Below, piece by piece: positions 3,640-5,522 of a stretch of DNA of 64,000 bases. Source of the stretch: Escherichia coli O127:H6 str. E2348/69 (GTDB lineage Bacteria > Pseudomonadota > Gammaproteobacteria > Enterobacterales > Enterobacteriaceae); assembly GCF_000026545.1 (NCBI RefSeq), contig NC_011601.1. One strand, 5' to 3'. Each line of letters starts with the position of its first letter. Position 1 is the stretch's first letter. The notes below the pieces were generated by a model. That model did not search any database and was not told the DNA's origin. It saw only the letters and a list, made by a program, of their open reading frames with translations. The position numbers and the translations under genes are program-made.

Positions 3640-3710
3640 TTTTTAATCTGCCTAAGCCGTGTACTCTGTCATCAACATGAGCACCGTTTTCTCCCTCTCC
3701 CCAAAAGGGG

Positions 3711-5260
3711 CTGTCTCTTATACACAAATCCCCACCCGGGGATTTGTGATGTCTGTCAGTCTGCTTTAGGGGGACTCTTTCCATCCGGTAGTTTCCTTCC
3801 TCCCCGGCAGCGATTTTTTGAACTTTTTCCTCACCCGTTGATCTTCTCTTATATTTCATTTTCTTCGGGTCTGTTATGGTACTTTCTGATTGTTATTCAT
3901 GGGCTAACGAGCAGTTTGGACATGCCCGTCTCGGTGATCCGCGTCGTACACGACGCCTTGTGTCACTGGCCTCTTCTCTCGCTCAGCATGCAGGTCTTTC
4001 TATTGTGAAATCATCCCAGTCCACTGCTCAGGTTGAAGGTGCGTACCGCCTGATACGTAACCCGTCTGTGTCCCCGCAAGCCATTGCCGAAGCCGGATTT
4101 ACCGCCACTGTAAGGGCATGTGAGGCTCATCCGCTGCTCCTCGCGCTGGAAGACACCACCACCATTAACTTCAGTCACAGTACGGCATCTGATGACCTGG
4201 GGAATACCACCACTAACCCGAAGACGCGCGGGCTGCTGGCTCACTCTGTCCTGATGTACGCCCCCGACAGCGCCCTGCCAGTCGGTCTTATCGAACAGCA
4301 GCGCTGGAGTCGTGCCACGGACACCTACGGTGTTAAGCACCAGCGAAAAGAACGTCCCTATGAAGAAAAAGAAAGTTACCGCTGGCAGCAGGCTTCGGAG
4401 CGCATGGCCGAACGGCTGGGGGAGATACAGAAACGGGTAATCACTGTCTGTGACCGGGAAGCGGATATCTGGCATTACCTGCATTATAAAGTCAGCCACG
4501 GGCAGCGCTTCGTGGTGCGTGCAGCACAGAATCGCCGGCTGGAAGAAGCACCCGGCAAGCTCTTCGAACTGCCGGAAGTCCTGGCAACCGCGGGAAGCCA
4601 CACGCTGAATGTGATGCAAAAAGGCGGGCGGGCAGCCCGCCAGGCCCGGATGTTCATCAGTTACAGCGAAGTCAGCATAAAAAACCCCGACAACAGCGGC
4701 CAGGCGCTCCCGCTCACGTATGTCTGTTGCCGGGAGCAGGCAGAGGACGGCGCCTGCTGGCATCTGCTGACGTCAGAAAAAGTGGCGAGTGCCGCCGATG
4801 CGCGACGTATCGTCAGCCATTACGAGCGACGCTGGCTGATAGAGGAATACCACAAGGCGTGGAAAAGTGGTGGTACATGTGTGGAATCGCTGCGAATGCA
4901 GACCCGGGATAACCTCGAGCGCATGGTGGTTATCAAGGCGTTTATCGCGGTGCGGGTGCTGGGCCTGCGGCAGGGCGGTATCAGTGAAGAAACACAAAAT
5001 GACAGCTGTGAGAAAATACTGACGCCGACAGAGTGGAAACTGCTGTGGGTTAAGCTGGAAGGAAAACCGCTTCCGTCACAGATGCCGACACTGAAATGGG
5101 CCTGTCTGAAACTGGCGAAACTGGGGCGATGGCATGACAGCAAACGCACCGGTCGCCCCGGTTGGGTAGTCATGTGGGATGGCTGGTTCAGACTTCAGGA
5201 TATGGTTGAGGGTTACCTGGTGATGAAGTCTCTTGATCAGGAGATCTGATCAAGAGACAG
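3711..5260 (+). mobile_element. IS4-family insertion sequence, IS50/Tn5-like (about 1550 bp)
   Basis: Left end ctgtctcttatacacaaat (3711-3729) and right end agatctgatcaagagacag (5242-5260), inverted; one transposase ORF; flanked by identical ccaaaagggg at 3701-3710 and 5261-5270. Confidence 0.85.
3876..5249 (+). CDS. DDE transposase, IS4 family (Tn5 Tnp-like)
   Basis: 457-aa ORF; LGDPRRT N-terminal motif, catalytic-region motifs ALEDTT, VCDREADI, YERRWLIEEYHKAW; stop codon lies inside the right terminal repeat as in IS50. Confidence 0.9.
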   Translation: MVLSDCYSWANEQFGHARLGDPRRTRRLVSLASSLAQHAGLSIVKSSQSTAQVEGAYRLIRNPSVSPQAIAEAGFTATVRACEAHPLLLALEDTTTINFSHSTASDDLGNTTTNPKTRGLLAHSVLMYAPDSALPVGLIEQQRWSRATDTYGVKHQRKERPYEEKESYRWQQASERMAERLGEIQKRVITVCDREADIWHYLHYKVSHGQRFVVRAAQNRRLEEAPGKLFELPEVLATAGSHTLNVMQKGGRAARQARMFISYSEVSIKNPDNSGQALPLTYVCCREQAEDGACWHLLTSEKVASAADARRIVSHYERRWLIEEYHKAWKSGGTCVESLRMQTRDNLERMVVIKAFIAVRVLGLRQGGISEETQNDSCEKILTPTEWKLLWVKLEGKPLPSQMPTLKWACLKLAKLGRWHDSKRTGRPGWVVMWDGWFRLQDMVEGYLVMKSLDQEI

Positions 5261-5522
5261 CCAAAAGGGGCGAGGGGACTGACCGAGTACTTTTTTGACG
5301 TTGTCATCAGTCTGGAAGCCGCACGTTGGGCTTTATTTTCATGTCAAACAAATGTAACCATTAAGTTGCGAAATATGACTTCTCTTTAAAATCCAGCATA
5401 TTTCGCTTCCCGAAGCTGTAACTTTCCTTATACTCGACCTTGCAAACACTTTGTTACATCCTGAAAGATGCGTCGACAGAACGCACCAGGGATGTGCGAC
5501 AACACAATGAAAGGATCGAAAA

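Follow-up and report, generated by a model that had tools for sequence, protein, structure and literature searches.

An intact ISEc13 copy in Escherichia coli E2348/69 and the conservation of Tn5-like terminal repeats across the IS50 clade

Insertion sequences of the IS4 family are defined by a DDE transposase with the signature Y-(2)-R-(3)-E-(6)-K, encoded by a gene without a frameshift (PMC2266710). For the IS50 subgroup of elements, De Palmenaer et al. give an end consensus of just CW------Y---CA-A--W- (PMC2266710, Table 1). The ViPar transposon of Vibrio parahaemolyticus has the same inside end (IE) and outside end (OE) as Tn5, and TnY, the ViPar transposase carrying P50K and M53Q, loads the Tn5 mosaic end (ME) and tagments DNA (Liscovitch-Brauer et al., bioRxiv 10.1101/2020.11.20.390971). 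The Tn5-like ends of the clade and their practical cross-use have been published already, for a sister element; the cross-use was shown one way only, by an engineered transposase acting on a Tn5 end. A literature search found no specific discussion of the ends of ISEc13, the element described here.

The window analysed (64,000 nucleotides of EPEC O127:H6 strain E2348/69) contains at positions 3711-5260 a 1,550-bp element, which is identical in 1,550 of 1,550 bp (100%) to E2348/69 copies annotated as 'IS4-like element ISEc13 family transposase'. Iso-forms of an IS usually share at least 95% of their DNA sequence according to ISfinder practice, and the 100% identity to copies named ISEc13 by RefSeq places the element in the same IS. 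It is already a named IS and not a new element; the name, and the statement that its ends are catalogued, rest on the NCBI RefSeq product name and on papers listing ISEc13. The initial annotation would have given up the novelty of the element if a known IS50-group transposase turned out to share more than 90% of its residues with the protein, and this is the case because the element is ISEc13, a named and widespread IS. The transposase, identical in the annotated ISEc13 copies, has the RefSeq accession WP_000244358.1, and the gene order alx-ISEc13-sstT of E2348/69 was found in NZ_LT827011.1, which matches the window. Near-full ISEc13 (at least 80% covered) is present in 873 of the 5,426 complete E. 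coli genomes, at up to 32 places per genome and at 27-30 places in the E2348/69 assemblies. All E. coli copies begin at the left boundary found at 3711 and finish at the right boundary found at 5260. Degraded copies are carried by Shigella virulence plasmids. Our main reading, to which we assign a probability of about 0.93 as a whole, is that 3711-5260 is an intact and probably active ISEc13 with Tn5-like cut-and-paste transposition, whose ends have been kept by the IS50 clade; its activity is suggested by the intact ORF, the intact ends and the duplication flanking it.

The left, transposase-proximal terminal repeat CTGTCTCTTATACACAAAT (3711-3729, + strand) is of the outside-end type. It agrees with the Tn5 OE at 17 of 19 positions, as initially annotated, with mismatches at positions 4 and 18, and with the IE at 13/19; its agreement with the ME is 17/19, one position better than the 16/19 noted before. 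The right terminal repeat CTGTCTCTTGATCAGATCT (5242-5260, - strand) is the IE of Tn5/IS50 in all 19 positions. This exact match had been claimed with the proviso that the Tn5 end sequences used might be wrong, a doubt that has been removed for the IE by real Tn5: at a plasmid locus, IS50L ends with ...AGATCTGATCAAGAGACAG directly before aph(3')-IIa (L002), and an IS50 variant (L005), the transposase of which is 97.5% identical to Tn5 Tnp, has the same IE. The OE and ME strings used for the comparison are those which we take to be canonical; the OE string is supported by CTGACTCTTATACACAAAT in the L005 variant and by CTGACTCTTATACACAAGT at Aeromonas and Tolumonas loci. In the 64-kb window, where 0.26 occurrences of the core pattern CTGTCTCTTNNNCANA would be expected by chance, there are just two, and both are the ends, which are inverted and bracket a single 457-aa ORF. 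Both 19-mers also carry every base specified by the IS50-subgroup consensus (C1, T2, T9, C13, A14, A16 and T19). The length of 1,550 bp lies within the range of the subgroup (1,350-1,550 bp), and the 10-bp duplication of this copy lies outside its range for direct repeats (8-9 bp). Just inside the 19-mers, the ungapped identity of ISEc13 and IS50 falls to the chance level (10/41 and 13/41, i.e. 24-32%). These values replaced the figure from a global DNA alignment of the two elements ('72% of aligned columns', with many gaps), which was discarded as a scoring artefact.

Signals for host factors overlap both ends. The left end contains a DnaA-box match, TTATACACA (3718-3726, + strand; consensus TTATNCACA), which occupies the same end positions, 8-16, as its counterpart in the Tn5 OE, where DnaA has an established role. 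The right end includes two Dam sites (GATC at 5243 and 5248), and the transposase gene stops within it, at TGA 5247-5249. Regulation of ISEc13 by Dam and DnaA is plausible from these motifs, which comprise two GATC in the right end and one in the putative promoter block.

The 457-aa transposase is encoded at 3876-5249 (+ strand), as defined by the ORF, by domain profiles and by alignment to the solved Tn5 transposase structures (E = 6e-84). The Pfam profiles Tnp_DNA_bind (PF14706, E = 2.8e-19), DDE_Tnp_1 (PF01609, 4.8e-7) and Dimer_Tnp_Tn5 (PF02281, 9.7e-5) give it the N-terminal DNA-binding, DDE and Tn5 dimerisation domains of the Tn5-type architecture expected in the IS50 subgroup, and NCBIfam NF033590 was scored with 514 bits (cut-off 160). 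In the global alignment, D93, D193 and E323 (4152-4154, 4452-4454 and 4842-4844, + strand) align with Tn5 D97, D188 and E326 and are by this mapping the presumed catalytic residues. The YREK residues Y316, R319, E323 and K330 align with Tn5 Y319, R322, E326 and K333, and W295 aligns with Tn5 W298. The Y-(2)-R-(3)-E-(6)-K signature, the DDE residues and the single uninterrupted ORF are those of the IS4 family. Identity to Tn5 Tnp is 39% (tblastn) or 42.6% (global alignment), in good agreement with the initial estimate of about 35-40% with shared architecture and motifs; IS50/Tn5 itself would be recognized by a near-identical transposase, which this element does not have. Within the N-terminal DNA-binding domain, the part aligned with Tn5 residues 20-70 reaches 64% identity, against about 40% in the catalytic and C-terminal domains, and the C-terminal tails of the ISEc13 and IS50 proteins differ. 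Since Q52 occupies the position of Tn5 M56, the start of Inh, and the next methionine is residue 127, an Inh-type inhibitor made from the Tn5-equivalent start is unlikely in ISEc13.

By homology with Tn5, ISEc13 would transpose by a plausible cut-and-paste mechanism. The two dissimilar 19-bp ends would be held by a dimer of the DDE transposase, in which one subunit covers the inner part of an end with its N-terminal domain and the other subunit places its catalytic domain on the tip. Excision would proceed via hairpin intermediates and reinsertion by a short staggered cut, usually of 8 bp and of 10 bp in the copy studied here. The transposase, of which the DNA-binding region is the best-conserved part, would contact the 19-mers along their full length, and these also hold the host-factor signals, i.e. 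the DnaA box on the left and the Dam sites and the transposase stop codon on the right.

The insertion site itself could be reconstructed. The element is flanked by a 10-bp target-site duplication CCAAAAGGGG (left copy 3701-3710, right copy 5261-5270). When the flanks were joined with CCAAAAGGGG kept once, the 600 nt compared were 100% identical to the unoccupied alx-sstT region of Nissle 1917 and other strains. This exact recovery of the empty site shows that 3711-5260 was genuinely inserted, with duplication of 10 bp. The target, located between alx and sstT, is a G/C-rich palindrome. The duplications were 8 bp long at 10 of the 13 ISEc13 sites examined, this copy counted among them; elsewhere one of 9 bp and one of 7 bp were found, and one plasmid copy had none.

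A scan for CTGWCTCTTATACACAART in one genome per species gave at least 120 loci, and the matches listed came mostly from Vibrio, Photobacterium, Pseudoalteromonas, Aliagarivorans, Neiella, Colwellia, Alishewanella, Aeromonas, Budvicia, Pluralibacter and Brenneria. The 19-mer CTGTCTCTTATACACAAAT recurs unchanged in an element of Vibrio owensii (L003) and in many other gammaproteobacterial elements. About 15 of the matches listed were adapter remnants. The idea that matches of CTGTCTCTTATACACAAAT followed by CCGAGCCCACGAGAC at MAG contig ends reflect a commercial kit using this end was rejected; with several other errors, they look like Nextera remnants that escaped trimming by their mismatches. 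We compared the ends of 15 elements, namely 12 distinct full-length elements from the scan matches listed, ISEc13, IS50 and the V. owensii element. The right ends of the scanned elements played no part in their selection. All 15 right ends read CTGTCTCTTGATCA[C/G]A[A/T][C/G/T]T, with positions 1-14 invariant, although the transposases are only 37-54% identical across sub-lineages (up to 91% within one sub-lineage). The strong constraint on the ends that had been proposed from the single locus is supported by this comparison. The difference between left and right ends at positions 10-12 is also clade-wide, with ATA and a DnaA-box match on the left and GAT and a Dam site on the right. Tn5-like ends are a property of the whole clade and are not special to ISEc13, the ends of which look like those of Tn5 because the whole IS50 clade kept them.

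In relatives with 27-33% transposase identity the ends have diverged stepwise. The Cupriavidus element (33% identity) has the end CTTGCCTTTACCCACATCT with 11-13/19 matches and the Methylosinus element (30%) the end CTACGGAGTTCACGGAAGC with 6-8/19. The Ralstonia element (27%) has CACCTCGTTATACACAAGT and CACCTCGTTATACACATCT, in which positions 8-19 are exactly those of OE and ME and the tip differs. The inverted repeats of 36-38 nt seen in two distant relatives (L006 and L007) were considered as long terminal repeats and rejected, since they consist of ends of about 19 bp, the duplication and a palindromic target.

The same data bear on the question of what holds the ends constant. It is possible, although we consider it rather unlikely, that the DnaA box, the Dam sites and the overlapping stop codon are mainly responsible, and not transposase contacts; end identity would then tell little about cross-recognition. 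The invariance of TTATACACA in all left ends, its retention in the Ralstonia relative with another tip, the invariant GATC at right-end positions 10-13 and the left/right asymmetry kept across the clade would all be expected from such host constraint. However, positions 1-7, which contain no known host site, are invariant too except for position 4, the DNA-binding region of the transposase is co-conserved (64%), and TnY uses the Tn5 ME. Host signals and transposase contacts are compatible explanations.

The exact IE match of the right end would also be explained if IS50 and ISEc13 had recently exchanged ends in enterobacteria, by chimera formation or gene conversion. Both elements live in Enterobacteriaceae, and G15 with the second Dam site (GATCAGATCT) is shared by these two only, whereas all marine relatives have C15. 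Nevertheless, the similarity stops at the 19-mer (13/41 in the next 41 bp) and the protein C-terminal tails differ; the chance-level values of 10/41 and 13/41 beside the two 19-mers argue against a recombinational patch. Moreover, three relatives (L051, L086 and L097) differ from the IE at position 15 only, so one substitution suffices for the match, and we regard an exchange as very improbable. An artefactual origin, through a mini-Tn5 inserted in the laboratory or through Nextera adapter sequence in the assembly, could be suspected because the left end opens with the 16 nt that start the Nextera/ME adapter and because of the adapter remnants at MAG contig ends among the scan matches listed. 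It is refuted for practical purposes by the full transposase gene and target duplication that belong to the two ends, by the same element at different sites in hundreds of independent complete genomes, by the recovered empty site and by the duplications at other sites.

Cross-recognition between ISEc13 and Tn5 is plausible. The right end is the IE. In the left end, T4 is the base of IE and ME, and A18 occurs in the OE variant of L005; every left-end base has a precedent in an end on which a transposase with at least 97.5% identity to Tn5 Tnp acts. Both ISEc13 ends are therefore probable substrates of Tn5 transposase. The reverse direction, the ISEc13 transposase acting on Tn5 ends, is less certain. 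The counterparts of Tn5 E54 and Q57, the positions engineered in TnY, are T50 and V53 in ISEc13, so cross-recognition may be weak or one-directional. The V. owensii transposase, which is 52% identical to that of ISEc13, has P50 and M53, and this element is thus of the ViPar type.

The left end is followed by a structured leader. A perfect 11-bp stem hairpin, CACAAATCCCC-ACCC-GGGGATTTGTG (3723-3748, + strand; RNA fold), overlaps end positions 13-19. Its counterpart in relatives (16 among the matches listed) is a G/C hairpin that starts at end position 16 and is followed by 6-9 T; compensatory changes occur in 5 of its 11 pairs. Together, the hairpin and T-run of these relatives resemble an intrinsic terminator for transcription that enters from the left flank. 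The ISEc13 stem is followed by TTT only, and terminator prediction did not call the ISEc13 leader. Comparison with the relatives also revealed an ISEc13-specific extra leader of about 65 nt (3749-3812, + strand) between the hairpin and the T-run/TTGAAC block, which is absent in Budvicia aquatica, the closest relative among the matches listed (N-terminus 75% identical), and in the marine relatives. The putative transposase promoter consists of TTGAAC, 16 nt and GATCTT (3818-3845, + strand), and a Dam site (GATC, 3840-3843) forms part of its −10-like hexamer. Hairpin-bearing relatives have the T-run, then the TTGAAC block and GATC[T/A]GATC about 16-18 nt downstream. A σ70 consensus scan of the whole element called no promoter, the 3818-3845 block included; the analogous tnp promoter of IS50, which is Dam-sensitive, suggests a promoter function of this block.

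At the other end, the perfect 13-bp palindrome GTCTCTTGATCAG-gagat-CTGATCAAGAGAC (5228-5258; z = -4.1) is formed by an inward-facing copy of end positions 3-15, which is encoded by the last codons (K-S-L-D-Q) and faces the real right end. The palindrome was also found in eight marine relatives among the matches listed, with the codons TCT CTT unchanged. It was rejected as an intrinsic terminator, as there is no T-run in either direction.

Several observations concern the targets. The 8-bp ISEc13 duplications are mostly flanked by CCCC(T)...(A)GGGG, giving the pattern CCCC(T)-N8-(A)GGGG. Several of the examined sites lie between convergent genes, and one ibs-type site holds ISEc13 in both orientations. 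The Cupriavidus and Methylosinus elements are inserted in the G/C-rich palindromes CCCTCT-N8/9-AGAGGG. Among the matches listed, 46 of the 68 unique left flanks of marine relatives have a run of at least 4 A at −30 to −9 and then a G/C stem, the frequency in controls being 9%; a T-run was present in just 3 of the 68. These flanks indicate oriented insertion of the marine relatives into intrinsic terminators. A literature search for IS elements targeting terminators found nothing specific.

A wider interpretation, which we put forward only tentatively and consider doubtful, is that the IS50 clade forms one cross-mobilisation network in which ISEc13 and its hairpin-bearing relatives are specialised for terminator-like palindromes and carry their own entry terminator. 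If so, the ISEc13, Vibrio-type and Tn5 transposases could each use the ends of the others as well as those of derivatives without a transposase; a Brenneria element of about 200 bp and Pluralibacter elements are candidate derivatives. Insertions of mini-Tn5 or of ME-flanked DNA could then be unstable in E2348/69 with its approximately 30 ISEc13 copies, and ISEc13 could in turn be moved by Tn5.

As a discovery, the locus carries small weight, for ISEc13 has a name already, and the likeness of the clade's ends to those of Tn5 had been noticed before and used to build the tagmentation enzyme TnY. The consequences are mainly practical. Tn5-based mutagenesis is applied to ISEc13-rich strains, E2348/69 among them, and a resident enzyme could move the insertions if it recognises Tn5-type ends. 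Trimming tools remove the Nextera adapter string. The left end starts with this 16-nt string, and reads over left ISEc13 junctions may therefore be clipped. The clade also offers a natural series for separating positions fixed by the transposase from those fixed by host factors among the 19 end positions. The target preference and the hairpins adjacent to the ends are of more interest than the end likeness itself.

Compared with known systems, the element at 3711-5260 shows no difference from ISEc13, its sole oddity being a 10-bp duplication in place of the usual 8 bp. With IS50/Tn5 it shares the three-domain transposase, the DDE and YREK residues, the single ORF, the identical inside end with two Dam sites and a stop codon within it, the OE-type left end with a DnaA box and a GATC in the putative promoter. 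In contrast to IS50/Tn5, the transposase is merely 39-43% identical and has no methionine at the Inh start, the duplication is of 8 bp (10 bp in this copy) and not 9 bp, and ISEc13 has a marked preference for G/C-rich palindromes; IS50 lacks both the hairpin abutting the left end and the palindrome at the right end. Elements of the ViPar type belong to the same clade as ISEc13. The left 19-mer of the V. owensii element is identical to that of ISEc13 and its right end agrees at 16/19; the ViPar-type right end has C15 and one Dam site, whereas that of ISEc13 has two Dam sites, the left-end terminator of ViPar-type elements is intact and the V. owensii copy is flanked by a 9-bp duplication. IS231A, another member of the IS4 family, prefers a short G/C palindrome, GGG-N5-CCC, as a target, and as a lead from general background this may be likened to the CCCC(T)-N8-(A)GGGG pattern of ISEc13. 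IS231A belongs to another subgroup with ends starting with CAT... and duplications of 10-12 bp (PMC2266710, Table 1).

The empty site confirmed that the ISEc13 copy in the window is flanked by a 10-bp target duplication, CCAAAAGGGG (3701-3710 and 5261-5270). When the duplications were counted over 13 sites including this copy (the others taken from loci L009-L014 and L135-L141), 8 bp was found in 10/13, 9 bp and 7 bp in one site each and no duplication in one, a plasmid copy. The Tn5 duplication is 9 bp; among the ISEc13 relatives the length is 8, 9 or 10 bp, varying by element. ISEc13 inserts into G/C-rich dyads of roughly CCCC(T)-N8-(A)GGGG (3687-3710 and 5261-5284 in the window; loci L009-L014 and L135-L140). 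Several of the examined sites lie in intervals between convergent genes (agp/yccJ, ybaY/MGMT-family gene and symE/DUF1127), two paralogous sites of the ibs type carry ISEc13, one in each orientation, and some sites presumably resemble the enterobacterial boxC-type repeats. The distant relatives from Cupriavidus (L006, 378-413 and 1874-1909) and Methylosinus (L007, 394-431 and 1822-1859) have targets of the form CCCTCT-N8/9-AGAGGG.

The marine relatives use intrinsic terminators as insertion targets, with one orientation preferred, judging from their left flanks in loci L016-L134. In 46 of the 68 unique flanks among the matches listed, four or more consecutive A between −30 and −9 precede a G/C stem and an A/T loop, against 9% at random positions; a T-run occurred in just 3 of these 68. 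The transposase gene of these elements is directed against the terminated host gene.

A hairpin beginning within the left end, in which end positions 16-19 pair with ATTT, is followed by 6-9 T and is kept in 16 relatives among the matches listed, with compensatory changes in 5 of its 11 pairs (alignment A3; L003, the Vibrio owensii relative, 510-545). Together with the T-run it is probably an entry terminator that protects the transposase gene against transcription coming in from the flank. The hairpin is retained in ISEc13 (3723-3748), but approximately 65 extra nt (3749-3812) precede the T-run. The final codons of the transposase gene (K-S-L-D-Q) make up a perfect 13-bp palindrome with the right end (5228-5258; L003 1964-1998); this palindrome is retained in 8 relatives among the matches listed; the codons TCT CTT are fixed, the adjacent codons differ synonymously and one position covaries (CAG/CTG vs CAC/GTG). 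No T-run was found after this palindrome.

Left ends identical to that of ISEc13 without a downstream transposase gene were detected in Brenneria roseae (L038) and Pluralibacter gergoviae (L034 and L035). The Brenneria unit of about 200 bp, with the terminus ...CCCAGAGACAG and the flanks CCCCT...AGAGGGG, is MITE-like, and these units are possible non-autonomous derivatives. Shigella virulence plasmids carry frameshifted ISEc13 remnants (S. flexneri, L004 1300-2230), with one change in the right end (CTGTCTCTTGATCAGAGCT) that destroys the second Dam site.

Approximately 15 scan matches among those listed (L021, L027, L036, L037, L043, L045, L061, L064, L090 and L101-L105) were rejected as IS ends, being error-containing remnants of Nextera adapters located at MAG contig ends of unrelated phyla (e.g. 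...ACACAAATCCGAGCCCACGAGAC). Conversely, the left end of ISEc13 opens with the 16-nt string cut by Nextera adapter trimmers, and genuine junction reads may therefore be clipped.

Two alphaproteobacterial relatives have inverted repeats of 37-43 nt (L008, 363-399 and 1893-1929; L143, 360-402 and 1883-1925). The actual end of the IS50-subgroup type seems to be the inner 19 nt (CTTGCAGTTACCCACAAGT and CTTTCAATTACCCACATCC); the mutually similar outer ~18 nt (CGTAAGCATCCGGCGTAG and CGTAACCGTCCGACGATG) may be either the element's own part or a shared palindromic target. The relative on the Ralstonia pseudosolanacearum megaplasmid (L144; 27% identity) has a 9-bp duplication, ACGTTAACG, and the ends CACCTCGTTATACACAAGT (358-376) and CACCTCGTTATACACATCT (1813-1831), which exactly equal the Tn5 outside end and the engineered mosaic end at positions 8-19 and differ from them in the 7-bp tip.
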